This document shows positions 8,582 to 33,085 of a stretch of DNA of 64,000 nucleotides, piece by piece (within the stretch, counting starts at the first letter, position 1; the number at the start of each line of letters is the position of its first letter). The position numbers were made by a program, and so were the translations under genes. Source of the DNA: Thermoanaerobaculia bacterium (GTDB lineage Bacteria > Acidobacteriota > Thermoanaerobaculia > Multivoradales > UBA5704); contig DASPXX010000275.1 of assembly GCA_035637095.1 (NCBI GenBank), positions 4,665-68,664 of the forward strand. The letters are read 5' to 3'. The notes under the pieces were generated by a model, which was not told the origin of the DNA, searched no databases, and worked only from the letters and a program-made list of their open reading frames with translations.

Positions 8582-9157
8582 CTGAGCGCACTCGCCCTCC
8601 CTCCGGCCGATCTGAAGGGTTTTCCGTCCCTCGAGCTCACCGGAGCTCGGCTCTACCGCATCCATCGAGCCGACCGCACCCCCTGGTGGTTCTCGAGCGA
8701 CGGCACCGGCCGCTTCGACCTGCCCGCGGGAAGTGGTCGGGGTACGTGCTACCTCGCAGAGGAACCGGTGGGTTGCTTCGTCGAAGTCTTTCGCTTCTGG
8801 ATGCTGGTGCCCGAGACCGAGATCGTGGTCCGCCGCCTCGCCCGCCTCGTCATTCCTCCAGTGCTCCTGGCCGACTGCACGTCCAGCCGCTGCCGCAGGT
8901 TCGGCCTCACCGGAGAAATCCATTCGACTCCTGAATATACCGTCACCCAGGCGTGGGCAGCCGCTTTGGCCGCTGCCGGCTTCGGCGGCATCCGTTACCT
9001 CCTGCGCCACGATCCTGGTCAGCTCCTGACCGGCATCGCCCTCTTCGGTCCCGCTGGCGTGGCCGGATGGCCGTTCGACCCCAGTGAGCCGATCGGTCCC
9101 GGCGTGATTGAGGAAGCCGAGCAGCGGTTCGGCGTACGGGTGATGCCGACACCATGA
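8582..9157 (+). CDS. RES-domain toxin (MbcT/ParT/Res family); start codon uncertain
   Basis: Motif text: ...LYRIHRA...GRFDLPAGSGRGTCYLAEEPVGCFVEVF...GFGGIRYLLRH...GIALFG. No in-frame ATG/GTG lies between the antitoxin stop (8565-8567) and the conserved N-terminus. CTG at 8582 is used as a provisional start. The stop overlaps the permease ATG (ATGA). Confidence 0.75.
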   Translation: MSALALPPADLKGFPSLELTGARLYRIHRADRTPWWFSSDGTGRFDLPAGSGRGTCYLAEEPVGCFVEVFRFWMLVPETEIVVRRLARLVIPPVLLADCTSSRCRRFGLTGEIHSTPEYTVTQAWAAALAAAGFGGIRYLLRHDPGQLLTGIALFGPAGVAGWPFDPSEPIGPGVIEEAEQRFGVRVMPTP

Positions 9158-10034: not shown

Positions 10035-10271
10035 TTGATGAGGAAATCTCGTGCCGTGACCGTATCTGAGCTACGACAGAACATCTACCATCTCCTGGAC
10101 CAGGTGCTCGACACCGGAGTACCGCTGGAAATCGAACGTAATGGGAGAAGGCTGCGCATCTCCCCGGAGTCGCCGCAGGACAAGCTCGCCAATCTGAAGC
10201 AGCGGGATTGTCTGGTCGGCGACCCGGAAGAGATCGTCCACATCGACTGGTCGCAGGAATGGCGCCTCTGA
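10035..10271 (+). CDS. Phd/YefM-type antitoxin, apparently orphan
   Basis: 78 aa. RAVTVSELRQNIYHLLDQVLDTGVPLEIERNGRRLRI is the typical Phd/YefM N-domain. No toxin ORF follows, because the MFS gene ends at 10317 on the other strand. Confidence 0.7.
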   Translation: MMRKSRAVTVSELRQNIYHLLDQVLDTGVPLEIERNGRRLRISPESPQDKLANLKQRDCLVGDPEEIVHIDWSQEWRL

Positions 10272-13142: not shown

Positions 13143-13397
13143 TCAGTAGTGATAGCGGAGCTGAGCGATCAGCACCGAGTCATCCTGGATCTTGTAGACG
13201 ATCCTGTGCTCGTCGTTGATGCGGCGCGACCAGTAGCCCTGAAAAGCATGCTTCAGCGGCTCGGGCTTCCCGAGCCCGCTGAACGGCTCGCGCTGGATCT
13301 CACGAATGAGGCGATTGATTCTGGCAACCAGGTTGCGGTCGGTCTCCTGCCAGTACAAGTAGTCTTCCCAAGCCCTCTCGGAGAAGATGAGCTTCAC
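13143..13397 (-). CDS. yoeB: YoeB/Txe-family toxin
   Basis: 84 aa. [50 protein letters not shown]...[13 protein letters not shown]...LRYHY is canonical YoeB. 4-nt overlap with yefM. Confidence 0.95.
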
Positions 13398-13645
13398 TCG
13401 GCCAGCTCTCGTTCCGTGCCGCCGCCACGTTCGAGCTCAGCGATCGCCTCGATCAGACGCCTTGCGTTCTTGGGGCTGCGCAGGAGATATGCCGTCTCTT
13501 CCAGGGACTTGTAGTCTTCGAGCGAGAGCAGCACCACCGACGCTTCACCGCTCCGGGTGATGATGACGGGTTCGTGGCTCTCGCAGACATGGTCCATGGT
13601 CTTGGCCAATTGTGCCCGCGCTTTGGTATAGGAGATCGAATCCAT
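13394..13645 (-). CDS. yefM: YefM-family antitoxin
   Basis: 83 aa. [31 protein letters not shown]...[18 protein letters not shown] is canonical YefM. Confidence 0.95.
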
Positions 13646-13778
13646 CGTGAGTCACCTCTGAGTACGTACAGGAAACTGTACGTCCCGAGGCGCGGGAAGT
13701 CAAAGGTTTACCCCTGCATCCCCGCCGGGCCGGCCGGGCAGCCCCTTCCGCCGGGCAAGGGTGATAGCATTCTGGGGT

Positions 13779-14039
13779 ATGTTGAGGACGATCGAAGGCG
13801 TCTACCGAGAGGGCAAGGTCGAGTTGGCCGAGCGGCCGAACGACGTGGGCGAGGACGCGCCGGTTCTGGTGACCTTCCTGGAGCCGCACCGCGTCGACCT
13901 CAGGGCGCACGGGATCGACGAGGCGCACGCGGCTGACCTGCGAGCCCGGCTCTCGACTTTCGCCGCGGACTGGGATGGTACGGAGATGGGCGTCTATAAC
14001 GACTACGACACCGCGAGGGCCAGGCTGCAGGCGGGGTGA
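13779..14039 (+). CDS. putative antitoxin partner of MazF (DUF104-like N-terminus)
   Basis: MLRTIEGVYREGKVELAERP... resembles small antitoxin-family proteins. The stop (14037-14039) abuts or overlaps the MazF-like ORF. Confidence 0.55.
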   Translation: MLRTIEGVYREGKVELAERPNDVGEDAPVLVTFLEPHRVDLRAHGIDEAHAADLRARLSTFAADWDGTEMGVYNDYDTARARLQAG

Positions 14040-14364
14040 CGTGGCCCTGGTCGTCTTTCCGGATTCCAACCTGCGAACAGCCAAGCTCCGACCGGTCCTG
14101 GTCGTCCAAGCGGACGACCTGAGGACAGGCCATTCACAGGTCATCGTCGCGATGATCACCAGCAATCTCTCGCGGGCCGGCCATGCGAGCCGCGTCAAGA
14201 TTCTCCGCGCAGCCGCCGAAGGCCGACAGTCCGGGCTGCTCACCGACTCCGTCGTGATGACCGACAACCTCGCCACAGTCACCGATACCGAGATCCACCG
14301 GGTTGTGGGCAGCTTGCCGATGGACAAGGTGGAGCAGGCTCTGCGGCACACACTGGCCCTGTAG
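13975..14364 (+). CDS. MazF/PemK-family endoribonuclease toxin
   Basis: ...RRGDVALVVFPDSNLRTAKLRPVLVVQAD...VIVAMITSNL...LLTDSVVMTDNLATV... matches the PemK/MazF fold signature. The start is ambiguous (ATG 13975 or GTG 14041). Confidence 0.8.
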   Translation: MVRRWASITTTTPRGPGCRRGDVALVVFPDSNLRTAKLRPVLVVQADDLRTGHSQVIVAMITSNLSRAGHASRVKILRAAAEGRQSGLLTDSVVMTDNLATVTDTEIHRVVGSLPMDKVEQALRHTLAL

Positions 14365-14375
14365 CCGGGACGGAT

Positions 14376-14890
14376 TCACGGAACGCCGAGCGAAGAGAAG
14401 AGGCAAGAGAGCCGGCGAGGCGCCGCCTGCCCTGCCCCCGCCCCGCTCCCCAGCGCGTGGCGGAGCCACTTGCCCTGGGCTCCCTTCGTCATCTTCTGCA
14501 TCTGCTCGTACTGCTTGAGGAGGCAGTTGATCTCGGTGACCGAGGTGCCCGAACCCATGGAGATGCGGCGCTTGCGGCTACCGTTCAGGGTGTCCGGCCG
14601 GTTACGCTCCTGCGGCGTCATCGAGTTGATGATCGCCTCGACTCGGCGCAGGCCTCCCTCGTCGACGTTCGCGGAGTCGAACCCCGGACCGACCTTCGGC
14701 AGCATCTCCATGACCGAGGCGGCGGATCTGGCGCAGCTGGTCGCGCAGGTCTTCCAGGGTGAACTGGTTCTTGACCATGCGCTGGGCGATACGCCGCGTC
14801 TCCGCTGAATCGAGCCCGCGCTCGGCCTTCTCGATGAGCGACATGATGTCGCCCATGCCGATCACCCGCGAGGCCGTGCGGCGCGGAAGA
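14376..14890 (-). pseudogene. ffh 3'-end fragment (SRP54 M-domain remnant), frameshifted duplicate
   Basis: 14427-14886 aligns with 18597-19078 (the 3' end of intact ffh). Most positions are identical. The fragment carries a 6-nt and a 14-nt deletion, the latter splitting the frame into ORFs 14376..14711 and 14602..14865. Confidence 0.85.
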
Positions 14891-15120
14891 TCTGCAGCCG
14901 CCGCGAGGCGCCCCGCATCCCAAGCTTTTAGCGAACCCTCCTCACTTTGGCGGCCACCTAGCCCGAGGAATCAGCTATGATCGGTCTGGGTAGCATCGGC
15001 CCGAACGGGGCCGAGCTCAACCCTGCTCCCTACTGTCGTAGCACACATCTGCCCTGCCGAGGACGTGGGGCTCTCATGGCGGACAGCCGGTAGCGTATGA
15101 GTTGACGGAGATACAAAGCG

Positions 15121-17028
15121 ATGGATGCAAAAGCCAAGGAAATTCTCGAGGTTCTTCGTGCTCACGGAACACTCTCGAAAGATGAGATCGTTACTACCTG
15201 GAGTCTCAGAGAACCTGAATATATCGCATTGAGGCACGCTCTAGCGTCAGCTCAAGATGTGGAGTCCGGCCCACGAAAGGTCGGTGGTTTTCGTATCAAG
15301 GCCCGACGCAGCCCTCTCCCGACGGAGACTCCAGAGGGTTCAACACCAATACCGGGTGCAAGTTGGGAAGCCATGGCTGTGAATAGATTATCTGAGCTGT
15401 TGCAACATAGGGAGCTAGAGGACCTTCTGGGAAATCTCGTATACACAGTCCGATTGGCACGAAAGACCGCGACTGGACAGGATCGGCGTGGCACGAAAGA
15501 GGAGCTCGGACATGCGTTGGTTATCAAGCATGGGATCGACCTCTTCCGTGATGGAGAGGTTCGCGCAATCGTTGCCCGCAAATGTGGCCTTCGCGAGCCA
15601 TCCAGATGGCATCCAGGAAAGACTGCGGCACTAGAGTTCGTGCGGCAGGCAGGATTTCCCTCCGATCTAGCCGGTATTCCGAGTGACGATCCACCCGAGG
15701 ATTTCGAATATCTCGAGGGGCGCCTTGATCTTAAGCCGTTGCAGGATTTTCAGGAAGACGTCAAGCGCCAACTAGTCACAACGTTAAACCTACCTAACGG
15801 CCGCGCCATCGTTACGTTGCCTACTGGCGCTGGCAAAACCCGCGTCGCCGTCGAAAGTATCCGCGACTGGCTTACCACTCGTTATGCGTCGCAGACTGCG
15901 AAGGCATCAGCAGTGCTCTGGCTCGCGCATTCGGGAGAACTATGCGAACAGGCATATACAGAGTTCCGACAGGTCTGGCAGGCCTCTGCTTCGGTTTGCC
16001 CCCTGCTTCTATTTCGTTTTTGGGGAAACTTTACGCAAGACTTGGCGGCTCATCGCGAGGCGCTAGCAGATATCCTTTGCCGACCAAGCGTCCTGGTTTC
16101 GACTCCTCAGCGCGTGGTAAACCTTCTCGCAGATCCCGGACCAGCCGAAAAAGCATTGCTGAACAACCTCCTTACCGCCACTTGTCTCGTGATTGTCGAC
16201 GAGGCTCATCGCGCAGCGGCGCCCTCTTACACTCGGATCCTGAACTTCTTTGCCGCGTCTCCATCTCCTCTTCCCATAGTTGGGCTAACGGCCACTCCAT
16301 TCCGTACGGAATATCTCTCCGATGGTGAGGCCGGTACGCGCGAGCTAGCCTCACTCTTTGGTACGCTCATCGAGTCCCGGTCGGTTCTGGGTGAAAACCC
16401 TCGCGAAACCCTGCAAACCCGCGGAGTCTTGGCCCGCCCCGTAGTCGAAACTATATTAACGTCGACAGTTCTCGAGGCTCCGCCAGTCCCTGATCAAAAT
16501 GCTATCACCGAAACTGACATCGAAACCATCGATCGTGCGCTTAACCTCCGGGCTGATAATCCACAGCGGCGGCTCGTGGTTTTTCGGCACATCCTACCAA
16601 TCTGCAGAGATCCAGAGAATTCCATCCTCTACTTCGGCCCTAGCATCTTAGATGCAGAGTGCATGGCCTTTCTCTTGCGCCAAGAGGGCATCTCTGCTGC
16701 CGTTCTCAGCGGCGGCACACGTGAGGTCACTAGGCGCAAGGCGGTAATGGATTTCAGGGCCGGACGCCTCCGCGTCCTGTGCAACTGTGAAGTACTTACG
16801 ACGGGATTCGATGCCCCCAGAGTTACCCATGTTGTAGTCGCCCGTCCTACAGTAAGTCGAGTTTTGTACGAGCAGATTGTTGGTCGCGGTCTACGTGGGA
16901 AGCTCTTTGGTGGAACTGACGAATGCGTGATCATCGACTGCGAGGACAACTATAAGTCAGAACGGCCTACACTTGGTTATCAATCATTTCGGCATATATG
17001 GTCACCAGTCGAGCGACACAGACAATAG
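15121..17028 (+). CDS. SF2 (DEAD/DEAH, ResIII-type) helicase with N-terminal wHTH-like plus unknown ~200-aa region
   Basis: 635 aa. Motif I LPTGAGKT, motif II VIVDEAH, motif III GLTATP, motif VI QIVGRGLRG. The N-terminus (KEILEVLRAHGTLSKDEIV) is wHTH-like. Markedly lower G+C than the surroundings. Confidence 0.9.
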   Translation: MDAKAKEILEVLRAHGTLSKDEIVTTWSLREPEYIALRHALASAQDVESGPRKVGGFRIKARRSPLPTETPEGSTPIPGASWEAMAVNRLSELLQHRELEDLLGNLVYTVRLARKTATGQDRRGTKEELGHALVIKHGIDLFRDGEVRAIVARKCGLREPSRWHPGKTAALEFVRQAGFPSDLAGIPSDDPPEDFEYLEGRLDLKPLQDFQEDVKRQLVTTLNLPNGRAIVTLPTGAGKTRVAVESIRDWLTTRYASQTAKASAVLWLAHSGELCEQAYTEFRQVWQASASVCPLLLFRFWGNFTQDLAAHREALADILCRPSVLVSTPQRVVNLLADPGPAEKALLNNLLTATCLVIVDEAHRAAAPSYTRILNFFAASPSPLPIVGLTATPFRTEYLSDGEAGTRELASLFGTLIESRSVLGENPRETLQTRGVLARPVVETILTSTVLEAPPVPDQNAITETDIETIDRALNLRADNPQRRLVVFRHILPICRDPENSILYFGPSILDAECMAFLLRQEGISAAVLSGGTREVTRRKAVMDFRAGRLRVLCNCEVLTTGFDAPRVTHVVVARPTVSRVLYEQIVGRGLRGKLFGGTDECVIIDCEDNYKSERPTLGYQSFRHIWSPVERHRQ

Positions 17029-17326
17029 GCCAGAAGAATCAACTGATGCGGTCGCCGCGCCGGTGGCGGCGGCGGCTACCTGGGGCTGTCTTTAACAAAC
17101 CTTATTTTCTTGGGTAGGTACCGGAAGACCGAAGCTTCTACCAGATCTCCTGCTGAGACGCTGGAACAGTTCTACAGGCGTTCCTTACCCCACGGCTGCC
17201 GTTCAGGACGCCCGGCTGGTTGCCTTCCTAGGGGGCGTAGGCGCCGAGCGTGACGGCCGAGTCGGTCAGCCGGAAGGTACTCACCGGGGTGCGGGATCTC
17301 GGTCCTCAACATCCCCGTCCCCTGGC

Positions 17327-17581
17327 TCAACAAAGCGGCGTGTCGATCATGTCGTAGCGGTCCGCCGGGCCGGTTTCCGGAGCGGGCGTGGCGATGAAGC
17401 CTGCCAGGCTCCCCGTCAACCTCTCGAACAGCTCGGCCATGTGGGTGGTGAACCGGGCCTGGGCCGCCGGACCCCGGCGCGCCGCCTCGCGAATGCGCCA
17501 GAGCGCGGCGCAGCCATGCGCTTTCTCATTTCGCGTGGGCTCTCTTCGCACCTGCCAGGGTCGGACCAGTGAGTTGAACAT
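17327..17581 (-). CDS. hypothetical ORF (84 aa), weakly supported
   Basis: ATG at 17581 is preceded by GGAGG at only 3-nt spacing. It overlaps the end of the XRE ORF by 56 nt. No family recognised. Confidence 0.2.
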   Translation of the reverse strand: MFNSLVRPWQVRREPTRNEKAHGCAALWRIREAARRGPAAQARFTTHMAELFERLTGSLAGFIATPAPETGPADRYDMIDTPLC

Positions 17582-17846
17582 GAACCTCCGCGTTGAGAGC
17601 GCGGGCGAGGCGCACCATTGTTGCGAGGGTGAAGTTCACTTTTCCCCGCAGGAGCTTGGTTACGTAAGCCGGAGTGGCACCGAGCCTCTGGGCAAGAGCC
17701 GTACAGGTCATCCCTTGGCGCTTCATCTCGCGGACCACATCTTCGGTGAACTCGAGGATTGCACCAGCCACCCAGTAGTCCTCGTGCTCTTCTGCTCGCT
17801 CGAACAGCTGGGGGAAAGTTCTTGGTCTCACAGCCGGGGGCCTCAT
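17526..17846 (-). CDS. XRE-family helix-turn-helix protein
   Basis: HTH text ...MTCTALAQRLGATPAYVTKLLRGKVNFTLATMVRLARAL. The ATG at 17846 overlaps the stop of the PIN-like gene (ATGA). Confidence 0.7.
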   Translation of the reverse strand: MRPPAVRPRTFPQLFERAEEHEDYWVAGAILEFTEDVVREMKRQGMTCTALAQRLGATPAYVTKLLRGKVNFTLATMVRLARALNAEVHVQLTGPTLAGAKRAHAK

Positions 17847-18328
17847 TCGCCCACTTTTGCCAAGGCTTCGTCCACCAGCCGCGGCTTCAGGCGCAACCCG
17901 GCGTCGCATAGCGCCTCGATGACGGGGCGTGCTGCGCTGATCAGGCCGCGATGGCGGCAGAGAACTACGATGCCCAACGTGCCGATCATGGGAAGGCCCA
18001 GACTGTGTGCACAGCGACGTGCCGCCAGATCGTCCAAGACGACCTCCGACCCAGGCCTTGCAAGTCCATGGATCAGGACTTGAGACTCCCCGGCTCCCAA
18101 GTCCCAGGAGCGGATCTGATCGGGAACCGGCTGATCGTCAACTCGGAGCACCGAGGAGAGATCCTTGATCCGGTCGGCCGTGTCGTCGTGATCGGCACCA
18201 GCATGGATCTCGCGGATCACAGCCTCTGGTACGATAAGGGTCTTCGCCAGAGAGGCCAGGAGGTCGAGGCGGTCGGTCCGGGAGAGGAGAATCAACGGCG
18301 AGGCATTGACGACCAGGACCCTATCCAC
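17843..18328 (-). CDS. PIN-like (DUF3368/COG2405) predicted nuclease toxin
   Basis: VDRVLVVNASPLILLSRTDRLDLL...LIVPEAVIREI...DLGAGESQVL...VLDDLAARRCA...GLPMIGTLGIV. GTG at 18328 overlaps the UPF0175 stop (GTGGATAG). Confidence 0.7.
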   Translation of the reverse strand: MDRVLVVNASPLILLSRTDRLDLLASLAKTLIVPEAVIREIHAGADHDDTADRIKDLSSVLRVDDQPVPDQIRSWDLGAGESQVLIHGLARPGSEVVLDDLAARRCAHSLGLPMIGTLGIVVLCRHRGLISAARPVIEALCDAGLRLKPRLVDEALAKVGE

Positions 18329-18572
18329 GCGCCAGGACCTCGTCGAGATCCTCCAGCGTCTCCTGGCAAGCCGAGACGCCGCTCTCCGACAGGGCGTCGA
18401 GGAACCCGGCTCGACTAACTCCCGCGAGCTCCGCGGCTCGACCTTGGGAGACTCGGCCCTGGGCATACCAGATCACCGCCGCCGCCAAGCGCATCTCTCG
18501 GGCAACCTCCTCCGGAGATCTCCGCAGGGTCGCAAAAACGTCGGAGTCGAATTCCACCTGGACCCGGGTCAT
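18321..18572 (-). CDS. UPF0175-family antitoxin
   Basis: MTRVQVEFDSDVFATLRRSPEEVAREMRLAAAVIWYAQGRVSQGRAAELAGVSRAGFLDAL is typical UPF0175/COG2886. It starts 23 nt downstream of the ffh stop. Confidence 0.75.
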   Translation of the reverse strand: MTRVQVEFDSDVFATLRRSPEEVAREMRLAAAVIWYAQGRVSQGRAAELAGVSRAGFLDALSESGVSACQETLEDLDEVLARG

Positions 18573-18595
18573 CGTTGACCTCCTATCGACGCGCT

Positions 18596-19930
18596 TCACC
18601 CCTGCATCCCCGCCCCGCTCCCCAGCGCACGGCGGAGCCATTTGCCCTGGACTCCCTTCATCATCTTCTGCATCTGCTTGTACTGCTTGAGGAGGCGGTT
18701 GATCTCGGCGACCGAGGTGCCGGAGCCCATGGAGATGCGGCGCTTGCGGCTGCCGTTCAGGACGTCCGGCCGGTTGCGCTCCTGCGGGGTCATCGAGTTG
18801 ATGATCGCTTCGACCCGGCGCAGGCCTCCCTCGTCGACGTTCGCGGCGTCGAACCCCTTGAGCGGGCCGACCTTCGGCAGCATCTCCATGACCGAGGCGA
18901 GCGGGCCGAGGCGGCGGATCTGGCGCAGCTGGTCGCGCAGGTCTTCCAGGGTGAACTGGTTCTTGACCATGCGCTGGGCGAGACGCTGCGTCTCCGCTGA
19001 ATCGAGCCCGCGCTCGGCCTTTTCGATGAGCGACATGATGTCGCCCATGCCGATCATCCGTGAGGCCATGCGCTCGGGATGGAACAGCTCGAGGTCGTCG
19101 TACTTCTCGCCGATGCCGACGAAGCGGATCGGCACGCGCGCCACGGTGCGGATCGAGAGCGCCGCGCCGCCGCGGGAGTCGCCGTCGAGCTTGGTGAGGA
19201 TGGCGCCGGTGAGCGGCAGGGCCGCCGAGAACTGCTCGGCGCTCTTCACCGCGTCCTGACCGGTCATCGAGTCGGCGACGAACAGGGTCTCGTGCGGCTT
19301 GATGCGGTCGGCGAGGCGGCGGATCTCGTCCATCAGCGCTTCATCGACGTGGAGGCGGCCGGCGGTGTCCATGATCACCACGTCGTGGCCGCGCTGGCGG
19401 GCCACGGCGAGGGCGCGCTCGCCCAGGGCGATCACGGTCTCGCCCGGCTCCGGCTCCAGGACCGGCACCTCGACCCCCTTGCCGACCTGCTTGAGCTGCT
19501 CGACGGCGGCGGCGCGCTGGAGGTCGCCCGCGACCAGGAGCGGATGCTTGCCGCGCTTCTTGAGGCGCTTGGCCAGCTTGCCGGCGGTGGTCGTCTTGCC
19601 CGAGCCCTGGAGGCCGCAGAGCAGGATCACCGCCGGGCGGCCGTCGAGGCGGAGCTCGGTCCCCTCTTCGCCCAGGAGAGCGGCGAGCTCGTCGCGCACG
19701 ATCTTGACCACCTGCTGGGCCGGGGTGAGGCTCTCGAGCACCTCAGCCCCGAGAGAGCGCTCGCGCACCCGTTCGACGAACGGCTTGACCACCCGCAGGT
19801 GCACGTCGGCTTCGAGGAGCGCCAGCCGGATCTGGCGGAGAGCCGCGTCGAGCGCCTCGGGTGTGACCTTGCCTTCGCCCTTGAGGCGGCTGAAGACGTC
19901 CTGGAGCTTGTTCTGGAGACCGTCGAACAT
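18596..19930 (-). CDS. ffh: signal recognition particle protein Ffh (SRP54)
   Basis: 444 aa from MFDGLQNKLQDVF. GTPase motifs GLQGSGKTTTAGKLA, DTAGR, TKLDG. Met-rich M domain at the C-terminus. Confidence 0.97.
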   Translation of the reverse strand: MFDGLQNKLQDVFSRLKGEGKVTPEALDAALRQIRLALLEADVHLRVVKPFVERVRERSLGAEVLESLTPAQQVVKIVRDELAALLGEEGTELRLDGRPAVILLCGLQGSGKTTTAGKLAKRLKKRGKHPLLVAGDLQRAAAVEQLKQVGKGVEVPVLEPEPGETVIALGERALAVARQRGHDVVIMDTAGRLHVDEALMDEIRRLADRIKPHETLFVADSMTGQDAVKSAEQFSAALPLTGAILTKLDGDSRGGAALSIRTVARVPIRFVGIGEKYDDLELFHPERMASRMIGMGDIMSLIEKAERGLDSAETQRLAQRMVKNQFTLEDLRDQLRQIRRLGPLASVMEMLPKVGPLKGFDAANVDEGGLRRVEAIINSMTPQERNRPDVLNGSRKRRISMGSGTSVAEINRLLKQYKQMQKMMKGVQGKWLRRALGSGAGMQG

Positions 19931-20034: not shown

Positions 20035-21372
20035 CTACCCTTCGCCCAGATTTTTCAGGATCTCGTAAAGCTGAGAGCGGCTGATCCCGGCGCGTTCGGC
20101 GGCCATCTCTTTGTTGCCGTCCGTTTCGGCCAGAACTGCGCGGAAGTAGCGTGCGCGCACACGGTCGCTGACCTGGCGCCAAGTCTCGCGGGCCGGGTCG
20201 AACCGCACGCTGTGGTCCGGCTCGGCCTGGGAAGACTGGCGCTGGGCTGCTTCGAGGAGATGGAGGGCGCTGATCATTCCGTCCGGGCCGGAGGCGTAGG
20301 CGGCGGCCTGCCGCACTGCCAGACGGAGCTCTCGCACGTTGCCCGGCCAGGTGTGGCGAAACAGAGAGTCGAGCACCCCGGCGGGGATCTTCCGAGTCCC
20401 CAAGTACTCTCGGTTGTATTCGTCGAGGAAGCTTTGCACCAGCAGAGGCAGGTCGGCCCGCCGCTCGCGCAAGGGGGGCAGGCGCAGGGTGAAGCCGCGC
20501 AGCCGCTCGTAGAGATCGCGGCGAAACTGTTCCTCCGAGGCGGTCTCCAGGTCCCGGCGAGTGGCCAGCACGAGCCGGGCCCGCACCGGTTCCCAGCGGT
20601 TGCCACCCACCGGCCGCACCTTGCGCTCTTCGAGGACCCGCAAGAGCTTCGCCTGGGCCGCCGGGGTCAAGTCGCCGATCTCGTCGAGAAAGAAGGTTCC
20701 TTCACCCGCGGCGACGAGCAGACCCGTGCGCTGTCTTTCGGCTCCCGAGAAGGCACCGCGCTCGTGGCCGAACAGCTCACTGGCGAGCAGCTCCGCGGTG
20801 AACTCCGCGCTGTTGACCGCTATCAGGTCTCCCGGCCGGCCGCTCCGGCGGTGGATCTCCTGGGCCACCCGTTCCTTGCCCGTTCCCGTCTCCCCCAGGA
20901 TCAGGACCGTTTCGTGAAGAGGAGCCACGGTCTCGATCTGCCGATAGAGATCCTGGAGCACGGCGGTGCCGCCCCACAAGTCACCGCAGCGAAACGGCAT
21001 CACATCGCCGGCCAGAATGAGCTCCCCCAGCACCCGCTCGGCCACAGCCTGCCCTTCCCAGCTCCGGGGGGCCACCAAGGCGGAAGCACCGCATTCGAGA
21101 ACCGCCCGGCGGTCGACCGGGGTCAGTTGGGGGCAGCACACCAGCATCGGAATGACAGGGCCCAGGGCTTCGCGCAACTGCGCCACCTCTTCGCCCAGCT
21201 CCACGATCTCGATCCCCGGGAGGACCAGGACCGCCCGGTCGATCTCTTTCGGAAGGCGCAGCGGCACACCGGCGCACAGCGGCAGCACCTCGGCATCGAG
21301 CCCACAGCGAGCAAGCTCCCGCGCCATGCCTGCGAGATCGAAGGACGAGGAGGCGGTGACGAGGATCTTCAT
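20035..21372 (-). CDS. sigma-54-dependent transcriptional activator (bEBP) with Asp-less pseudo-receiver N-domain
   Basis: AAA+ core: Walker A GETGTGKE, GAFSGA loop (ELFGHERGAFSGA), LFLDEIG, and a C-terminal Fis-type HTH (...AAERAGISRSQLYEILKNLG). The N-terminal ~120 aa are receiver-like but lack the acidic pocket and phospho-Asp (VLVLPGIE). Confidence 0.9.
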   Translation of the reverse strand: MKILVTASSSFDLAGMARELARCGLDAEVLPLCAGVPLRLPKEIDRAVLVLPGIEIVELGEEVAQLREALGPVIPMLVCCPQLTPVDRRAVLECGASALVAPRSWEGQAVAERVLGELILAGDVMPFRCGDLWGGTAVLQDLYRQIETVAPLHETVLILGETGTGKERVAQEIHRRSGRPGDLIAVNSAEFTAELLASELFGHERGAFSGAERQRTGLLVAAGEGTFFLDEIGDLTPAAQAKLLRVLEERKVRPVGGNRWEPVRARLVLATRRDLETASEEQFRRDLYERLRGFTLRLPPLRERRADLPLLVQSFLDEYNREYLGTRKIPAGVLDSLFRHTWPGNVRELRLAVRQAAAYASGPDGMISALHLLEAAQRQSSQAEPDHSVRFDPARETWRQVSDRVRARYFRAVLAETDGNKEMAAERAGISRSQLYEILKNLGEG

Positions 21373-22826
21373 CTTCTTCCCCGCGGATAATACGCCCGGG
21401 GCCTGGCGTTGAGGGTCTGGACCCCCCGGAATCTCAGAGCACCCGCGTCAAAACCTTCGAGAATGACCTGCCTGCTCGTCCCCCGGCTGAACATGGCCGT
21501 TAGCACCTCCTCTGCGAGATGCCAGGTCTTGTCGGATTCCACCTCACCTTCGAAGCCGATGGCGACACCGGCGCCGCACTCTGCGAAGGTCCGGGCGAGC
21601 ACATGAGAATCGCAGGTCAGGAAGAGCGCCAGCCGCAGGTCGCATTGGCTGAAGCAGTCAACCCACTGCTCTTGTGTCACGTTCATCCCCGGGATATGGA
21701 GGCCGGACCTCGCCGATCCGTGCCCCATGTGGATCCATACATTGGGCTCGGCGGCCAAAGCTCGAACCACCCGTTCGGGTTGAATCGCCAGCTCGATCTG
21801 GCTCTCCAGAGCATGCGGCACCTTGCGCAGCAGCCTGCCCACCTCCTCGGCTGCCGTCAGCCACTGGCCGACCTCGCTCTCGCCGGAGCTGAAGGCTCCG
21901 GTGAACAGCAAGGAGGGGTACTGGAGGGCCGGCCGCAGGATCGGCGCAGGCCGGGCCTGCACGGCGTGAATCGATTCCGGAACGAGGAAAGAGGACGGAT
22001 ACCATTTGCGGAGCTCGTTGAGCCGGAGGAGGAAATACCAGAGCTCGAGCTCGCCGTGAAAAAGCAACGGAGGAGGGAGACGCTGATTCTCGCAGAAGCG
22101 GCTTAAGCTACCGGATGGATCCCGGTTGACGGTCGCGAAGAGGCAAGCCCGATGGAGCGGATCTTCCGTATAGGTTTTCAACCTCTCGGCAGAGGGCATC
22201 TCATCGGTCACGACCAGCACCAGGTTGGAATCGGCTCGATGGCTCGGGTCAGCGATCACCAGGGGTTGGAGGAGCCTGCCGACCAGATCCCGGCCTTCGT
22301 ACTGCTCGGTGAGGAAAGCGCAGCGCCACTCTCGGTGGTCGGCGATGTCATTCAGCACCTGCCGCCGATCTTTGGTCTGCCTGGCTCCCCTGCTCAAAGA
22401 TCTGTGCAAGGGCTCTGGGTTCTCGGAGGTGTAGCTCTCCAGAACTTGCACCAGGTCGGTGACTCCCTCCTCCAGCAGCACCCTCATCCAATCTCCAAGG
22501 CTCTCCTGGATTGAAACCAGCTCATTCGAGAGCTTCAGGCGCTCGACCACAAAGAACAACCGCGCTCCCCAGATCCGCTTGCGCGCCTGGCCCAGGATTC
22601 CTTTGAGTACCGACTGCCGGATTCCGTAGGGGAATTCCTCCTCGTCAAAGCCGAGAAAGACATCATAGAGAGGGATTTCGCTGCTTTGGTCCCTCCTCCC
22701 TGCCTCCTCGACCAATCTCCGACAGAGCTCCTCCCACTGCTTCTCCTGAGCTTCTGGCGTTTCCTTGATCCACCAGGAGAAAAGGGGCTCGTAGTCCCCC
22801 TCTGCCTGGACGATAACGTAGGGCAT
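21369..22826 (-). CDS. CHAT/caspase-fold-like protein with unknown ~330-aa N-terminal region
   Basis: 485 aa. The C-terminal ...NVWIHMGHGSARSGLHIPG...DLRLALFLTCDSHVLARTFAECGAGVAIGFEGEV fits the CHAT His...Cys dyad context (HxGHG / LxxC). ATGA overlap with the EBP gene. Confidence 0.65.
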   Translation of the reverse strand: MPYVIVQAEGDYEPLFSWWIKETPEAQEKQWEELCRRLVEEAGRRDQSSEIPLYDVFLGFDEEEFPYGIRQSVLKGILGQARKRIWGARLFFVVERLKLSNELVSIQESLGDWMRVLLEEGVTDLVQVLESYTSENPEPLHRSLSRGARQTKDRRQVLNDIADHREWRCAFLTEQYEGRDLVGRLLQPLVIADPSHRADSNLVLVVTDEMPSAERLKTYTEDPLHRACLFATVNRDPSGSLSRFCENQRLPPPLLFHGELELWYFLLRLNELRKWYPSSFLVPESIHAVQARPAPILRPALQYPSLLFTGAFSSGESEVGQWLTAAEEVGRLLRKVPHALESQIELAIQPERVVRALAAEPNVWIHMGHGSARSGLHIPGMNVTQEQWVDCFSQCDLRLALFLTCDSHVLARTFAECGAGVAIGFEGEVESDKTWHLAEEVLTAMFSRGTSRQVILEGFDAGALRFRGVQTLNARPRAYYPRGRR

Positions 22827-22841
22827 GGTCTAGCCTCACGC

Positions 22842-24539
22842 TCAACGCGCCGCCGGAAGCTGGAGAACGAAACGGTGACCGAAGCTCCCGGGGATCGCGT
22901 CGGAGTCCTCCTCCAAGGAGCCTCCGACCGTTTCCGCCAGGATTCTCGCGAGGTACAGGCCCAGCCGGTGCCCCTTTAGGGCCTCGTCGGCGATTTCCTC
23001 GCCCAGCTCCGGAAGCGGGGTGAAGGGAGCGAAGAGGAGGTCCCTCATCCGTTTCGGCATCCGCCGGCTCGTTTGCTCCTCGAGGAGGACTTGGGCCCTC
23101 CCGCCATCTTGGCCAAGGCGGCATTGGATGGAGCGCGGGGCCTCTTCATTCCGGGGCAACCTCGTGAGCCGCCGCCCCAACCAGAACAGGATCTGAGAAA
23201 CAGCCTTCTCCACTTCCACCTTCGGCGCTTCCGCAGTACAGCTCCCCTCGATCATCATGGCGGTGTCCGGCAATCGGAGATGGCCGGAGAGACTGGAGGA
23301 CCATCGGTAGGACAACAGCTCCTTCAGCTCGATCGTTTCGCTGACCGCGTCCACTTTCGCCCTGTCTGAAAGCAGCTCGACCTGTGACAGCATCTCACCG
23401 GCACTCCGGAGCTGCTGAGCCACCGCATGGAGCTTCCCCAGGGGGACTTTCCCCTCTTGCTCCCTTCCCTGCTCCTCAGCCTCACGAAGAAGCCCCTCCA
23501 TCTCCTGTCCCTGGTAAAGGCAAAAGTCGCTGGTTGCTCTCAACAGGGTTCGACGCTCCATGTCGATCGTCGCCCACAGCCCGGCGAGCTCCGCCCATCG
23601 CGCCATAACGGTCGGCGTCAGGTAGTTGGCTAGGATGGGAGCCAAATCGGCGGCAGGTTCTTCGGCAGCGCCGACGCCCGACGACAAGCCGAGACTCAGG
23701 AATCCCCCCTCCACATCTCCCAAGGGAATGAAGGCGGCACGATCGAGACGGGCGAGAGCTCTGGTGGCCGGTCCATGCTCTCCGGCAGGAAGACCTCGAA
23801 CCCAGGAGTCCTGTTGCGCATCGATAACTAACGGTTCTAGCGCGCCGAGCTTGCCATGAACAGCGGTTTGAATCCGTCGGAGCAGGCCGGAATCCTCTAT
23901 GTCCATCTGGCTTCCTAGAGAGTGAAAGAACCTCCGCCGGGAGGTTGCAAGAAGAACGAAGCCTCCGCCTAAGATCGCTTCAAGCTCCGGTTTCAGCAGG
24001 TCGCGACAGAACCCCGCCCTGGCATCATCCAGACTCTGGCTTTTTCGGGCAATCTCCAGAATGCCCTCCGTCTCATTGGGGAGATCACTCCGCAAAGCTC
24101 GCCGCAATGCCAGCGCTTTCACGTGGTGTGCGATGCGGTCAATTCGTGGCGGCTTCCCTGGAGCAGGAATTGGATCATCCGGGTCTCCGCCCAGCTCTCC
24201 TTTCCGCAGGTAAGCCGCTGCACCGAGCTGGATGGCAGCCTGGTAGTAGTCCGGCTTCTCGTGAGCGCTATAAACAAGAAATTCAGGGAGCCTTCGACGC
24301 TGCCGCTGCCATTCCTCTTTGAGCCATAAACCAAAGTCGAGCCCATTCCCGCCCCTTCCCAACTCAACGTCGATCAGCACCACGTCGAGATCTTCCCCCA
24401 GATCCCCACTCTTCTTTCTCGCGCCCTCTTCATCCTTTGCGGTGGCAACGAGAAAACCCCGCTTCTCGAGGCCGCCTCTCAGCAGACCCCGCAGGGCATC
24501 GCGATCTTCTACAACCAGGACCCACTTACTACGTTTCAT
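22842..24539 (-). CDS. response-regulator receiver + GAF-like + degenerate HATPase-like (pseudokinase) protein
   Basis: The receiver looks intact (VLVVEDRD...VVLIDVEL...VYSAHE...YLRKG). The C-terminus keeps a G2-like GHRLGLYLARILAETVGGSL, but I see no H-box His, N-box Asn or DxGxG. Confidence 0.8.
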   Translation of the reverse strand: MKRSKWVLVVEDRDALRGLLRGGLEKRGFLVATAKDEEGARKKSGDLGEDLDVVLIDVELGRGGNGLDFGLWLKEEWQRQRRRLPEFLVYSAHEKPDYYQAAIQLGAAAYLRKGELGGDPDDPIPAPGKPPRIDRIAHHVKALALRRALRSDLPNETEGILEIARKSQSLDDARAGFCRDLLKPELEAILGGGFVLLATSRRRFFHSLGSQMDIEDSGLLRRIQTAVHGKLGALEPLVIDAQQDSWVRGLPAGEHGPATRALARLDRAAFIPLGDVEGGFLSLGLSSGVGAAEEPAADLAPILANYLTPTVMARWAELAGLWATIDMERRTLLRATSDFCLYQGQEMEGLLREAEEQGREQEGKVPLGKLHAVAQQLRSAGEMLSQVELLSDRAKVDAVSETIELKELLSYRWSSSLSGHLRLPDTAMMIEGSCTAEAPKVEVEKAVSQILFWLGRRLTRLPRNEEAPRSIQCRLGQDGGRAQVLLEEQTSRRMPKRMRDLLFAPFTPLPELGEEIADEALKGHRLGLYLARILAETVGGSLEEDSDAIPGSFGHRFVLQLPAAR

Positions 24540-27388
24540 GAGATGCTCCTTGGAAAGATTACGGTCATCCGTGTGACCACTCCTTCTGGCGGTTGGAGAG
24601 AAAGGTCCAGCCTTCCGCCATATCGCTCCAGCGCTCGCCGAGCGAGAGGAAGCCCCCGGCCGCTACCCCGTTTCGTCGAAAAACCAAGCGTGAAGATTCG
24701 CGACCGATTTTCCTCAGGAATGCCACAGCCGTCATCGTCGATATGGCAAACCACTGCACGATCTGAAGCTTCCTCCTGCACAGTGATCGTCCCTCTCCTT
24801 TCAGATCGGGATTCCTTCCCAAGAATCGCATCTCTGGAGTTTCGCACAAGTGTCATGAGAACCAGATACGCCACATCAAATGGCACCTCTATTCTCCATT
24901 CTCGTTCTTCCTTCCAGACCAGATCGATGGCACGCGCCGCCAGACGCCCTTCGTAGAACTGGCCCACCTTCTCCAGGACCTCGGCCAAAGGAACAGAATT
25001 ACGCCCATCCAAGGGGAATGGCTTGAGGACAGAGCCGGCAAGCTCCAGAAACTGTTTGGCCGACTTCTCCAAAGCATGGAGTGTCCCCAGTCTGGGATCG
25101 CCGGGAGCGAGGCTTCCATCCCGGAGAAATTCCTCCCGGACCCATTCAACGCCAAGCGCAAACTCCTCTGCCGGGCTTCGGAGCTCATGCACCAGCAGAT
25201 CGTTCATCTCGAACTGCAAGGCCTCGGTTTCCAACTCGATCGCGCGGATACGGACCAGAGCCAGGTCGGCAGCCTCTGCGAATCGCTCCAGGAACCCCGC
25301 CCACGGAAGCTCCTCGGAAAGCTCCAGATGAAATCCCGGCCGCGCGATTCCCATGTAGAGCTCAACCTGTGAAGCAGTTAGTGGCAGAACGAGGATGCTC
25401 TCTCGTGCTCCATCGGACAAACGATGGTCAAAAACCCAGTATCGACCGACCCGCAACGGCGGTGAGTCTGCCTGAGAAACGCTGATCCTCCTCCCATCCT
25501 CCACAAGCCACTCGCGGGAGCCAGAAATCTTCTCGGGGTCGAACCAAACCCAGAGAAGACAAACCTCTCTGACAGCCTCTCGGAGTGCATCCCACCACTC
25601 GTGATAGGAAACGAGATCAAGCGAGCCGAGCCGTTTGTATAGACTATTCATGGCACGTCCGAGCTGGGCGCGATATTGGTCGAAGGCTGAGTCCCTGACC
25701 AAGGCAGCGATCACTTCCAGTTGCCGCTTATCCTCAGTGAGCGAAGGCCGATCCAATGGGTCCAAATCTCTGTCTATCACCAATATGATCTTTCCGATGG
25801 CTTTCTTCTCCAAAAGAATAGGAATCTCGACACAAGAATCGTTTGACCCCAGGAGAGACCGAAACTCGGCCTCAACCCTAGCAGGCTCTGGCTCTTGAAG
25901 GAGGTAAGGCGGGAAGCTCTCAACTCCACAGACAGCAGCTTGGCAGTGAAAGCCGAAGTTGAAGATAACCAGCGTGCTCTTTGGTGAGAGCATATCGTGA
26001 ATATCCTCAACAAACTTTGCGAGAAACATACCTTGATCGGGGGGGCGGCTCGATCTAACAGTTCTCAGTCGATTCCGCAACTGGCTCCGCGCCCACAACC
26101 AGCGTTCGGCTTGAATAACAGGAGTCAAGAACTCGGTCGCCTGGCGAATACGCTTCACATCAGTAGCTGTGACCGCACCCCTCTTTTGCCATTCAAAATT
26201 CAAACAGCCGACCACTGCACCATGAAAGCGAAGAGGAAAATTGACGAGTGAGTGCATGCCGGGAACGTATTCCCAGTAGCCCTTTCCACCAGAAAAATCG
26301 GGATCTCTTTCCCGGTCGTGGCTATGAACAAACTCGCCCTTGGCGAGAACCTTCCCTATAGTGGAGATTTCCGGCCTCGGCCGGGAATGCTGATCCAACG
26401 GCCGAAAGTCTGGTTTCAGCGCTGGATCCCGCAGCCATCTGAAAATCAGTACCTCGTCCGCTTTATCGCCAGGCAACCGAAGGCAGAGAGCGACAAGATC
26501 GGCCCCGATACTTTCGGCTACGGCACGGAGAATCCCATGGCTTACGAGAAAATCTCCTCTACTCTTCTTGACCGGCTCCAAGACGTCCTCGACCACGGCA
26601 AGCGAAAATGCGGAGAGGCACCGCATGATAACCAACAAGGCTCCGACAAAGAGGGAAACTTTCAAGACGAACGCCACACCAAACACACCGGCATCAAGAG
26701 CATCCACAACCGTACGTGGGGGGGAAGGCTTCATCCAGAGACTCTGCATCCTCTGGCTGACACGATCAGCCAAGGCCGACCAAGAACTCAGTGCGGGGAC
26801 TATCGCATAGACAACATGAAGGCAGGCATAGAGAAAGCCTCCCACGAGGTTGAAGAATGCCCAACTCTTCTTCTGCCGCGTTCCTGAGCTTGCGAACATC
26901 GCCCAACTGACACTGACCAGACAGATACTCGACAATAACGCTTCCAAAAAGCGATCCCAGGGAGAGGCGAGGGCTGCCTCCAAGACACCGCTGACCACGA
27001 ACGGAGCCAGGAGCCAAACCCAACGGGTTCGCAACCATCTATGCGGAAGTCGATAGAGGAGCGCCAGTGCCGCACAAATAAAAAACAGACTGTTGAGGTT
27101 CGAGAAGATCGCCTGTGCGATCGTTTCAATGAACTTCCAGGAACTTTCGCTGTCCCTGATCTTTGCCCAGAAGGCCACCGTCCGCAGCGTATATTGCACG
27201 GGGAAGACAGCAAAGGCCAAGCCAAGGTAAAGCACCCAGTCCTCATCCTTCAAAACCTCTTTGCGAAGGATCAGCAGGACCCCTGCCATCACCAGTGCCA
27301 CGATCGCGGTCACAAAGGTGATCGTCGTAGCCTTGAAGGCACTCCAGGCGGCGTAACTGGCGATGAAATCAAGAATCACATCGCTCAT
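24536..27388 (-). CDS. multi-TM sensor histidine kinase with tandem GAF-like domains
   Basis: Start chosen at ATG 27388 (MSDVILDF...), 2 nt after the upstream stop and with GGGAGGG as SD. About 7-8 TM segments. H-box VHELRSPAEEF, N-box TLVRNSRDAI, DDDGCGIP, GSGRGLPLARR. ATGA overlap with the next gene. Confidence 0.85.
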   Translation of the reverse strand: MSDVILDFIASYAAWSAFKATTITFVTAIVALVMAGVLLILRKEVLKDEDWVLYLGLAFAVFPVQYTLRTVAFWAKIRDSESSWKFIETIAQAIFSNLNSLFFICAALALLYRLPHRWLRTRWVWLLAPFVVSGVLEAALASPWDRFLEALLSSICLVSVSWAMFASSGTRQKKSWAFFNLVGGFLYACLHVVYAIVPALSSWSALADRVSQRMQSLWMKPSPPRTVVDALDAGVFGVAFVLKVSLFVGALLVIMRCLSAFSLAVVEDVLEPVKKSRGDFLVSHGILRAVAESIGADLVALCLRLPGDKADEVLIFRWLRDPALKPDFRPLDQHSRPRPEISTIGKVLAKGEFVHSHDRERDPDFSGGKGYWEYVPGMHSLVNFPLRFHGAVVGCLNFEWQKRGAVTATDVKRIRQATEFLTPVIQAERWLWARSQLRNRLRTVRSSRPPDQGMFLAKFVEDIHDMLSPKSTLVIFNFGFHCQAAVCGVESFPPYLLQEPEPARVEAEFRSLLGSNDSCVEIPILLEKKAIGKIILVIDRDLDPLDRPSLTEDKRQLEVIAALVRDSAFDQYRAQLGRAMNSLYKRLGSLDLVSYHEWWDALREAVREVCLLWVWFDPEKISGSREWLVEDGRRISVSQADSPPLRVGRYWVFDHRLSDGARESILVLPLTASQVELYMGIARPGFHLELSEELPWAGFLERFAEAADLALVRIRAIELETEALQFEMNDLLVHELRSPAEEFALGVEWVREEFLRDGSLAPGDPRLGTLHALEKSAKQFLELAGSVLKPFPLDGRNSVPLAEVLEKVGQFYEGRLAARAIDLVWKEEREWRIEVPFDVAYLVLMTLVRNSRDAILGKESRSERRGTITVQEEASDRAVVCHIDDDGCGIPEENRSRIFTLGFSTKRGSGRGLPLARRALERYGGRLDLSLQPPEGVVTRMTVIFPRSIS

Positions 27389-27390
27389 GC

Positions 27391-28719: not shown

Positions 28720-28759
28720 CGGTCTCGTTCCTCAATCACAGGTGACTATAGATACAAGC

Positions 28760-28799
28760 GGCCGGCGGGCAGCCTCCCTCGCAAGGCTGCCCGCCGGCC
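28760..28799 (-). terminator. perfect 15-bp stem hairpin between the micropeptide ORF and the operon (terminator/attenuator candidate)
   Basis: GGCCGGCGGGCAGCC (28760-28774), 10-nt loop, GGCTGCCCGCCGGCC (28785-28799). It begins 1 nt after the micropeptide stop. On the transcribed strand it is followed by GCTTGTATCTATAG, only a modest U-tract. Confidence 0.5.
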
Positions 28800-28800
28800 C

Positions 28801-28923
28801 TCAGTTGCCGCTTTCGGCCTCTTCGTCGGCACCGAGCGCCCAGATTCCGTTGCCCGAGTAGTGGAAGCGGCGTGGCGGGCGACTGCGAGGGAACCAGGCT
28901 CTCAAGCGTTTGAAGGTTGTCAT
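28801..28923 (-). CDS. 40-aa micropeptide (basic N-half, acidic C-tail)
   Basis: MTTFKRLRAWFPRSRPPRRFHYSGNGIWALGADEEAESGN. The ATG at 28923 is preceded by GGAAAGGGGG at about 8 nt. It lies about 40 nt downstream of a sigma-54 promoter motif. Confidence 0.5.
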   Translation of the reverse strand: MTTFKRLRAWFPRSRPPRRFHYSGNGIWALGADEEAESGN

Positions 28924-28961
28924 GGTAACTACCCCCTTTCCTTTCGACGCCTTGGCTAGAG

Positions 28962-28977
28962 AGCAACTCGCGTGCCT
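28962..28977 (-). promoter_or_regulatory. near-consensus sigma-54 (-24/-12) promoter
   Basis: The minus strand reads AGGCACGCGAGTTGCT, compared with consensus TGGCACG-N4-TTGCW. The GG/GC spacing is exact. It points toward the micropeptide and the five-gene operon. Confidence 0.6.
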
Positions 28978-29171
28978 ACCCAATTAGGAGCAGAATATCC
29001 ATTGTTTTCAGTGGGTTGAGTGGAAGACCGTCAACTCGGCGGCAGATTATGTCGGATCGATCGGACCGCATTCCAGACTTCCGGATTGGTCGGACGATGT
29101 GGACAGTTGGGCGTTGGGGCGAGGTGGCCGTCTTCGTGCCGCACTGCCCTGTATCGATATACTCCCCGCCC

Positions 29172-31339: not shown

Positions 31340-31341
31340 AG

Positions 31342-33011: not shown

Positions 33012-33074
33012 GGCTCCTGTTTTTTCTAACCTGCACCCCTCTCCCACTCGTGGGAGAGGGGCCGGGGGTGAGGG
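32946..33074. repeat. 129-bp MITE/REP-like palindromic element (same family)
   Basis: The arms are essentially identical to those at 31342-31470, with a different central core. Confidence 0.9.
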
Positions 33075-33085
33075 CCTGTCGGCGC

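Follow-up and report, generated by a model that had tools for sequence, protein, structure and literature searches.

The icd gene, which is the target of e14 and of phage 21, is the classic protein-gene case of target restoration, and Campbell-type single crossover is a well-known route to insertion-duplication. We describe here a related scar at the gene ffh in a stretch of 64,000 nucleotides (nt) from a Thermoanaerobaculia bacterium (contig DASPXX010000275.1), and this whole stretch is called the window below. In it, the intact ffh gene and a 5'-truncated second copy of its 3' end, fragment F, bracket an islet that holds a helicase gene and toxin-antitoxin genes. The scar concerns an essential gene and is of a kind already known, in which a duplicated gene end brackets an accessory islet, and it does not represent a new system. 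As far as a literature search shows, ffh is new as a target.

In islands of the Islander or TIGER type, the target gene is restored and a displaced 3' fragment is left behind (PMC4383910). Like these islands, the ffh locus combines an intact target, foreign DNA and a co-oriented, 5'-truncated copy of the 3' end, the homology ends at the stop codon, and the cargo consists of accessory, toxin-antitoxin and defence genes. Unlike them, it has no integrase nearby or in related loci, its restored end is not of separate ancestry, the repeat of approximately 480 nt spans a whole domain, and there is no backbone. Cis-mobilizable elements and their tandem accretion offer a second comparison (Pavlovic et al. 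2004, as summarised in PMC5704250). To the extent covered by that summary, the likeness lies in a repeat-flanked islet that lacks integration and transfer genes, and in nested copies of the target end that suggest successive events. The differences from the elements so summarised are that no related functional integrative and conjugative element, integrative and mobilizable element or prophage at the same site was found in ~160 loci, IMG/VR, plasmids or phages, that breakpoints are unshared, and that the units are module-sized (0.7-2.3 kb).

Hotspots of horizontal gene transfer that are flanked by core genes and lack mobile-element genes were reportedly described by Oliveira et al. in 2017. 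The ffh locus resembles them in its variable content between ffh and rpsP, in a turnover faster than species divergence and in the lack of an integrase. However, such hotspots normally involve a double crossover in both flanks and leave no duplicated fragment, whereas here the ffh flank itself has been duplicated repeatedly. Homology-facilitated illegitimate recombination during DNA uptake is the last of the related systems (de Vries & Wackernagel 2002 and Prudhomme et al. 2002, via PMC6382021). This process, going by that secondary account, and Campbell-type insertion share with the ffh locus a one-sided anchor in a conserved gene, junction microhomology (3-4 nt here, which is not statistically significant), no need for a recombinase, a close donor, and an outcome of one intact gene plus a truncated duplicate. 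However, both are known from laboratory transformation of competent species, and are not known from Acidobacteria, nor as something that recurs in nature at a single locus. We tentatively favour a recombinase-independent, homology-anchored insertion-duplication in a hotspot downstream of ffh, at a probability of roughly 0.4, where the recombination route itself is what we infer.

The duplicated 3' end of ffh

The window contains the following sequences derived from ffh.

18596..19930, minus strand: intact ffh, 444 amino acids, with the Pfam domains SRP54_N, SRP54 GTPase and SRP_SPB (M domain)
18598..19085, minus strand: duplicated part of intact ffh, comprising the G-M linker and the entire M domain (gene nt ~855-1333)
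14430..14893, minus strand: ffh 3' fragment F, a 5'-truncated pseudogene (blastn, MAFFT, nhmmer)
17193..17235, minus strand: second ffh remnant of 43 nt (ffh nt 1142-1184, 86%, blastn E 2.6e-8 and local alignment)
13707..13726, minus strand: ffh-terminus remnant (GGCGGGGATGCAGGGG TAA), matching 19/20 nt of the ffh terminus including the stop codon

Nucleotides of ffh, which is 1335 nt long, are counted from the ATG at 19930. This is the true start, rather than the TTG at 20182, and an independent contig carries the identical protein with the same gene call. Ffh identity ranges from 48 to 98% across the 163 loci that were fetched for comparison.

When ffh is compared with the whole window by blastn, its nucleotides 859-1331 match positions 14880-14430 on the same strand with 90.06% identity over 473 columns (25 mismatches, 3 gaps, E = 0). 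A search by nhmmer with a profile of 67 ffh tails extends fragment F to 14893 (E 4e-115), and the identity to the intact tail is 93.9-94.5% when gap columns are excluded. MAFFT alignment reveals two deletions in fragment F. One removes 14 nt (CGCCTCGGCCCGCT) at ~14721/14722 and shifts the reading frame, wherein the lost nucleotides correspond to one copy of the 8-nt direct repeat CGCCTCGG plus the spacer, as in slipped-repeat deletion. The other removes 6 nt (GCTCAA) at 14685/14686. Much of this had been read from the letters alone in the original prediction, which proposed that 14427-14886 duplicates the 3' end of ffh in the same orientation, that about nine in ten positions match, and that deletions of 6 and 14 nt are present, the latter between direct repeats. 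The alignments bear out each of these points, with the coordinates now given as 14430-14893 against 18598-19085. The overall anatomy of intact gene, islet and displaced co-oriented 3' fragment is likewise confirmed.

Gene callers give 14376-14711, a fragment of the ffh pseudogene, as a protein of 111 amino acids with an SRP_SPB domain. Called in this way, fragment F is an annotation trap.

One possibility is that the arrangement is an assembly artefact, wherein the ffh loci of two strain variants have been fused in a chimeric metagenomic contig. The genome was assembled from a metagenome, and repeats of 90-94% identity can mislead assemblers. However, 21.3 kb of the window are matched at 100% identity by a 46.7-kb ENA contig. 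In addition, Logan contigs from two runs (SRR6266545, SRR10360623) match 14644-17582 and 17556-18804 at 100%, and cross the junction between fragment and helicase, the 43-nt remnant, and the junction between ffh and its downstream neighbour UPF0175. The open reading frame (ORF) of the fragment and the PemK gene beyond it are each present on three contigs with their neighbours unchanged. Frame-breaking deletions and neutral substitutions are not expected of a functional strain allele, and because of these deletions fragment F is not a strain allele of a working ffh. Moreover, an analogous structure exists in the independent assembly of a related locus, L001. A mis-join, which the original prediction had named as a danger, is highly improbable given that the same architecture recurs at 100% in several other assemblies. 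Thus, the duplication of the ffh tail is a real, reproducible insertion-duplication scar without an integrase.

The original inventory of ffh copies is correct for the large fragment and overlooked the two further pieces, at 17193-17235 and 13707-13726. The 43-nt remnant has the same orientation as ffh and is located between a block of two small genes (XRE and orf84) and the helicase module. The terminus remnant carries the last codons A-G-M-Q-G, its final 17 nt are exact, and its stop codon is TAA where ffh has TGA. There are only 2 sites in the 64 kb with the exact terminal 17-mer of ffh, namely the remnant at 13707-13726 and the end of the intact gene. Most simply, this remnant is the true end of fragment F, severed by the PemK module.

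Ancestry and recurrence of the duplication

Judged by its Ffh relatives, the window falls within the Thermoanaerobaculia (Acidobacteriota). Comparisons with relatives draw on ~95 Thermoanaerobaculia loci among the 163, and labels such as L001 denote loci. According to the original prediction, an integrating element had brought a replacement 3' end to ffh, and the question was which of the two ends is native. If the intact tail had come from elsewhere, its distance to related genes might differ from that of the 5' part. The identities of the window gene to three relatives are as follows.

L084: intact tail 95.7%, 5' part of ffh 95.2%
L086: intact tail 94.0%, 5' part of ffh 93.6%
L001: intact tail 93.1%, 5' part of ffh 92.6%

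Derived sites were counted over 446 aligned tail positions against L084, L086, L001 and L085. The two copies in the window have 22 derived states in common, and 15 of these fall on third codon positions. Private changes number only 5 in the intact copy and 21 in fragment F, where they fall on the three codon positions as 6/6/9 and are evenly spread along the whole length. This is the signature of a neutral pseudogene of the lineage's own ffh, which would have arisen after the split from L084. The same pattern is seen when L001 is compared with L085 (10 shared, 6 intact-specific and 9 fragment-specific sites). Because of the 22 shared lineage-specific substitutions and the equal distance of tail and 5' part to the outgroups, neither end of ffh is foreign and both copies are of local origin. 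The idea of an imported replacement end is not upheld.

There are only two representatives of the large ffh fragment among the ~95 Thermoanaerobaculia loci, one in the window and one in L001, which stands closest to the window among species-level representatives (95% Ffh identity). Downstream of ffh in L001 come a 1.07-kb pair of orf110 and Fic/Doc, and then a decayed remnant of ~80 nt (ffh nt ~1175-1256, ~70-75%). This remnant is fused straight to a 455-nt fragment (nt 881-1335) that is 97% identical to the ffh of L001 itself, and beyond it are a TIR-domain gene and a HigB/HigA pair. A third species, represented by L088, retains a remnant of 40 nt from its own ffh (nt 1126-1165, 90%, E 8e-9) at L088:11827-11865, which is ~500 nt after ffh in AT-rich intergenic DNA. 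The tail duplication is recurrent in this lineage, because the window, L001 and L088 all carry ffh debris.

Some further candidates did not hold up. Short ffh matches in L114, L121 and L141 are low-complexity, AAG/GAA-rich stretches and probably reflect chance. A foreign donor for the short remnants was rejected, as no other lineage is closer to any of them than their own. A common recombination core at the ffh sequence 'AACGGCAGCCG' was also considered, since the remnant in the window ends there and the older remnant in L001 starts there, but the remnant in L088 stops 19 nt earlier.

The gene order ffh-rpsP-...-trmD-rplS is found class-wide, with a gap between ffh and rpsP that varies from 83 nt to 8 kb, and rpsP is found nowhere in the 64-kb window. 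Conservation among relatives ends at the ffh stop codon. From there, close relatives each carry a different small module that begins 14-41 nt past the stop, in the same orientation as ffh.

Window: UPF0175/PIN
L086: ORF of ~79 amino acids, then UPF0175
L084: ORF of nucleotidyltransferase type, as judged by reading its sequence
L001: orf110 and Fic/Doc

The ~79-amino acid ORF of L086 reads as HicB-like. Across the class, the downstream cargo is of many kinds, among them glyoxalases, Uma2, ParE, nucleotidyltransferases and insertion sequence (IS) transposases.

A single ancient event that duplicated the ffh tail locally, in an ancestor common to the window genome and L001, could also account for both large fragments if gene conversion kept the copies similar, other lineages lost the fragment, and cargo was inserted later. 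The fragments have similar boundaries in the two genomes, and direct repeats of 460 nt would readily allow a fragment to be lost by recombination. In addition, the UPF0175 gene beside ffh is common to L086 at a divergence near that of ffh, and some cargo may therefore predate the fragment. However, the flanks of the fragments in the window and L001 have no homology on either side, and L085, a sister of L001 (95.6% nt identity), has no ffh fragment within 10 kb and keeps rpsP 6 kb downstream. The even spread of the 21 private changes speaks against any recent conversion tract, and this scenario requires more events than independent origins do. We therefore regard it as improbable.

The comparison of relatives suggested in the original prediction was carried out and yields loci with a single ffh and no fragment within 10 kb, including L085, L003, L002 and many others, while the sequences of L084 and L086, which are the closest, are too short to be decisive. 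Islet-free relatives that nonetheless carry the fragment would have indicated an old local duplication. What is found instead are fragment-free relatives, and an L001 fragment that has different cargo and is nearest to its own ffh.

Search for a recombinase and content of the islet

No Phage_integrase, resolvase or large serine recombinase is present between the repeats or within +-10 kb of them (gene calls and Pfam). More broadly, neither the 64-kb window nor L001 has a tyrosine or serine recombinase, and none adjoins ffh in the ~95 Thermoanaerobaculia loci. Iterated XerD and Hin searches of all six-frame ORFs of the window and the 163 loci gave two hits only, both in distant taxa and without an ffh fragment. 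Pfam finds no prominent recombinase among 118 ORFs downstream of ffh, and the window contains no tRNA, tmRNA or Rfam element. No IMG/VR contig carries an ffh tail and no ffh-tail surrogate is found in plasmids or phages. Similarly, no functional element using the same ffh site appears in ~160 loci, IMG/VR, plasmids or phages. The islet had been described as lacking an integrase, with a search for a cognate recombinase proposed as a check, and that search of the window and related loci is negative.

Several candidates were rejected in the course of these searches. Tyrosine recombinases do occur downstream of ffh in the distant loci L145 and L153, with no accompanying ffh fragment. ORFs of 290-460 amino acids that abut ffh in 10 relatives proved by Pfam to be only a YhgA-like Transposase_31, an IS rve transposase, a radical-SAM enzyme and unknowns. 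The hits among plasmids correspond to complete ffh genes in records that resemble chromosomes. The 'SRP protein' of phage ON470592, which might have been a phage attachment site (attP), belongs to a P2-like prophage record that includes the whole host operon ffh-rpsP-rimM-trmD-rplS.

These results bear on a second explanation, in which the locus is a decayed array of site-specific integrative elements resembling cis-mobilizable ones. Here, an integrase would have targeted the linker between the G and M domains of ffh, each element would have carried a surrogate ffh 3' end, and tandem accretion would have been followed by loss of the integrase and transfer genes. The architecture fits the Islander definition of a regenerated target with a displaced fragment at the island end (PMC4383910), and it fits the accretion scenario in the form in which it is summarised in PMC5704250. 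The ffh debris in three genomes with its nested remnants, the start points of the large fragments only 26 nt apart (~855 and 881), and toxin-antitoxin and defence cargo of a kind usual for islands are consistent with it as well. However, no integrase, relaxase or backbone remnant exists in the window, in L001, or beside ffh in the ~95 loci, and IMG/VR, plasmids and phages yield no attP element with an ffh tail. The ancestry of the restored tail is not separate, the remnants have no common breakpoint, and the islet of L001 is merely 1.07 kb long with one Fic/Doc pair. Finally, the literature search returned ffs, the RNA partner of ffh in the signal recognition particle, as a described attachment site (PMC12540744), and not ffh, in agreement with the original remark that ffh is not known as a classical attachment (att) site. 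The repeats of the islet are present without an integrase, and their role as att sites is putative. On balance this explanation is a serious contender that we consider less likely than the homology-anchored route.

Cargo and neighbouring genes are listed below in the direction of ffh transcription.

18321-18572, minus strand: UPF0175 gene (Pfam/PADLOC)
17843-18328, minus strand: DUF3368 PIN-like gene (Pfam/PADLOC)
17526..17831, minus strand: orphan XRE/HigA-like antitoxin gene (Pfam)
17327..17581, minus strand: orf84, a called gene with no family match, putatively coding
15121..17028, plus strand: stand-alone RadD-like superfamily 2 (SF2) helicase gene (ResIII and Helicase_C), antisense to ffh (Pfam, PADLOC)
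13737..14366, plus strand: PemK/MazF toxin-antitoxin module, with the partner ORF at 13779-14039 and PemK at 14041-14364 (Pfam)
13143..13645, minus strand: yefM-yoeB toxin-antitoxin pair (Pfam)

The full order is thus ffh, UPF0175 with DUF3368-PIN, the orphan HigA-like XRE gene, orf84, the 43-nt remnant, the helicase gene (antisense), fragment F, the PemK module (antisense), the ffh terminus, and a promoter with yefM-yoeB. Type II toxin-antitoxin families matched are YefM/YoeB, PemK with its partner, UPF0175/DUF3368 and HigA-like XRE. The UPF0175 and DUF3368 pair (17843..18572) begins 23 nt past the ffh stop, has its own GGAGG ribosome-binding site, and matches the PADLOC candidate system PDC-S70 (E 1.5e-51). 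Its UPF0175 gene is 93% identical in L086. The L001 copy of the XRE/HigA-like gene (91% identical; L001:16220-16921) follows a Gp49/HigB-like toxin gene.

The helicase is clearly the foreign core of the islet. Its segment has a G+C content of 0.53-0.57, compared with 0.63-0.65 for the toxin-antitoxin/XRE part and 0.67-0.70 for the surroundings. Homologues with 55-71% identity occur in several phyla as stand-alone genes in defence-island settings without integrases. The original prediction had placed the SF2 helicase, XRE and UPF0175/PIN genes together in a low-G+C islet. Pfam and PADLOC confirm the genes, and only the helicase is clearly low in G+C.

The PemK module of ~630 nt is situated between the body of fragment F, which ends at ~14430, and the ffh terminus. 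A 7-15-nt stretch of the ffh terminus, GGCGGGG[AT]GCAGGG, borders it on both sides as a direct repeat, and the module is ~91% identical to L001 9300-9826. In L001, L018 and L095, the module is found upstream of ffh. The PemK module is relocated, having been inserted into the tail of fragment F. Tandem duplication of a unit of PemK and ffh could also place PemK after the fragment, but would require too many extra deletions, and insertion with the 7-15-nt flanking repeat fits better. In L018 and L095, the module is the immediate upstream neighbour of ffh and is divergently transcribed, and the PemK gene of L001 (L001:9300-9826) has lost 105 internal nt that are present in the window and L095. 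A predicted sigma70-like promoter (13703->13675) is located directly after the ffh-terminus remnant and before yefM-yoeB, and this pair was probably once the direct neighbour of ffh.

The PemK operon (13761-15121, plus strand) runs antisense into the ffh fragment and continues in the direction of the helicase gene, and no terminator is predicted in the intervening DNA. Speculatively, and judging from sequence alone, a read-through RNA from PemK would be ~94% complementary to the last ~460 nt of ffh mRNA.

The islet is a mosaic of independently moving modules with an internal ffh remnant, and not one element. Perhaps the 3' end of ffh is the docking site of an undescribed process of cassette capture, which would operate through a recombinase encoded elsewhere and acting in trans or a defined recombinase-independent route. 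It would place one small toxin-antitoxin or defence module after another right behind an essential, highly expressed gene, and would resemble an integron platform with ffh tails as att sites. We consider this a long shot. Features of an integron or attC array are lacking at the locus: there is no tyrosine recombinase, and the modules abut (0-30-nt spacers) in mixed orientation with no recurrent boundary repeat. The terminal 17-mer of ffh was examined as a recurrent cassette boundary and rejected, as neither of its two exact copies is at another module border.

The neighbourhood has further features of its own. Downstream, in the ffh-distal region, are additional genes of toxin-antitoxin type, including a RES-domain gene (~8768-9157) and a Phd/YefM-type antitoxin gene (~10038-10271), and this region is toxin-antitoxin-rich. 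On the other side, a 9-kb block at 20035-29157 (GAF histidine kinase, response regulator, orf485 and sigma54 activator) separates ffh from the conserved upstream gene at 29157-31346. Among relatives, this block is common only to L003, and it is absent from L084, L001, L085, L002 and L004-L006. Because this upstream block is shared only with L003, there is variable DNA on both sides of ffh. Directly after the ffh stop of L085, at L085:11340-11750, are ~400 nt of dense direct and inverted repeats (CCCGTTGAACGGGAGAGG...), which could be like repetitive extragenic palindromes (REP), iterons or miniature inverted-repeat transposable elements (MITE). The window itself has a dispersed repeat family of 45-150 nt (31339-31471, 32923-33076, 54410-54584, 57940-57996 and 58847-58996). 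These repeats match short direct and inverted repeats in L005, L084 and L085, and look REP/MITE-like.

A possible route and its implications

Under the homology-anchored insertion-duplication that we favour, the DNA just past the ffh stop codon would be a recombination hotspot in which small toxin-antitoxin and defence modules arrive, disappear and change places with no dedicated recombinase at work. Incoming DNA, linear or circularised, would derive from a very close relative and carry an ffh tail followed by cargo. This tail would pair with the resident ffh through RecA-type homologous recombination. The other end might be closed by an illegitimate join at short microhomology inside ffh (nt ~855), or a single Campbell-type crossover of a circle might suffice. 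The outcome would be one complete ffh, the cargo, and the 5'-truncated resident tail. The truncated copy, being useless, would then decay through point changes, slipped-repeat deletions, further insertions such as that of the PemK module, and large deletions that leave remnants of 20-80 nt. Repeated rounds would stack modules and leave nested remnants.

We favour this route because no recombinase or parent element could be found, the ancestry of both copies is local, the breakpoints differ, the junctions show microhomology only (CGCA or GCA), and the cargo is mosaic. The five ffh pieces share no breakpoint: the large fragments start at ~855 (window) and 881 (L001), and the remnants span 1142-1184, 1175-1256 and 1126-1165. 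Junction microhomology amounts to CGCA in the window and GCA in L001, and these 3-4 nt are not statistically significant. Microhomology of 3-10 bp is reported for homology-facilitated illegitimate recombination in the account given by PMC6382021.

Several points weigh against this route. The two large fragments start 26 nt apart in a gene of 1335 nt, both at a GCATGG motif in the linker between the G and M domains, and by our own estimate such proximity would have a chance of ~4% under random breakpoints. However, the fragment edge in L001 is secondary, as it is fused to the older remnant. A restored gene accompanied by a displaced co-oriented fragment and by nested repeats is what textbooks describe for site-specific integration with tandem accretion, and a recombinase could be encoded elsewhere in these incomplete genomes. 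No polymorphic form of the locus, either empty or circular, was found. In addition, the entry of DNA into this uncultured lineage, by natural transformation or another route, is presumed. Even so, the 'different duplication event' that the original prediction offered as its alternative is at least as likely as an integrative element.

It is still poorly explained how small toxin-antitoxin and defence modules pass from genome to genome when no mobile-element genes can be recognised. The ffh locus provides a dated, multi-layer record of such events at one core gene in an uncultured soil phylum. The window genome has at least three ffh leftovers, a sister species has two and a third species has one, each with different cargo. 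A homology-anchored process would make this locus a case from nature in which defence islets are shaped by insertion-duplication or by homology-facilitated illegitimate recombination. With a recombinase, ffh would become a new attachment site in a protein gene, beside the site recently reported in ffs.

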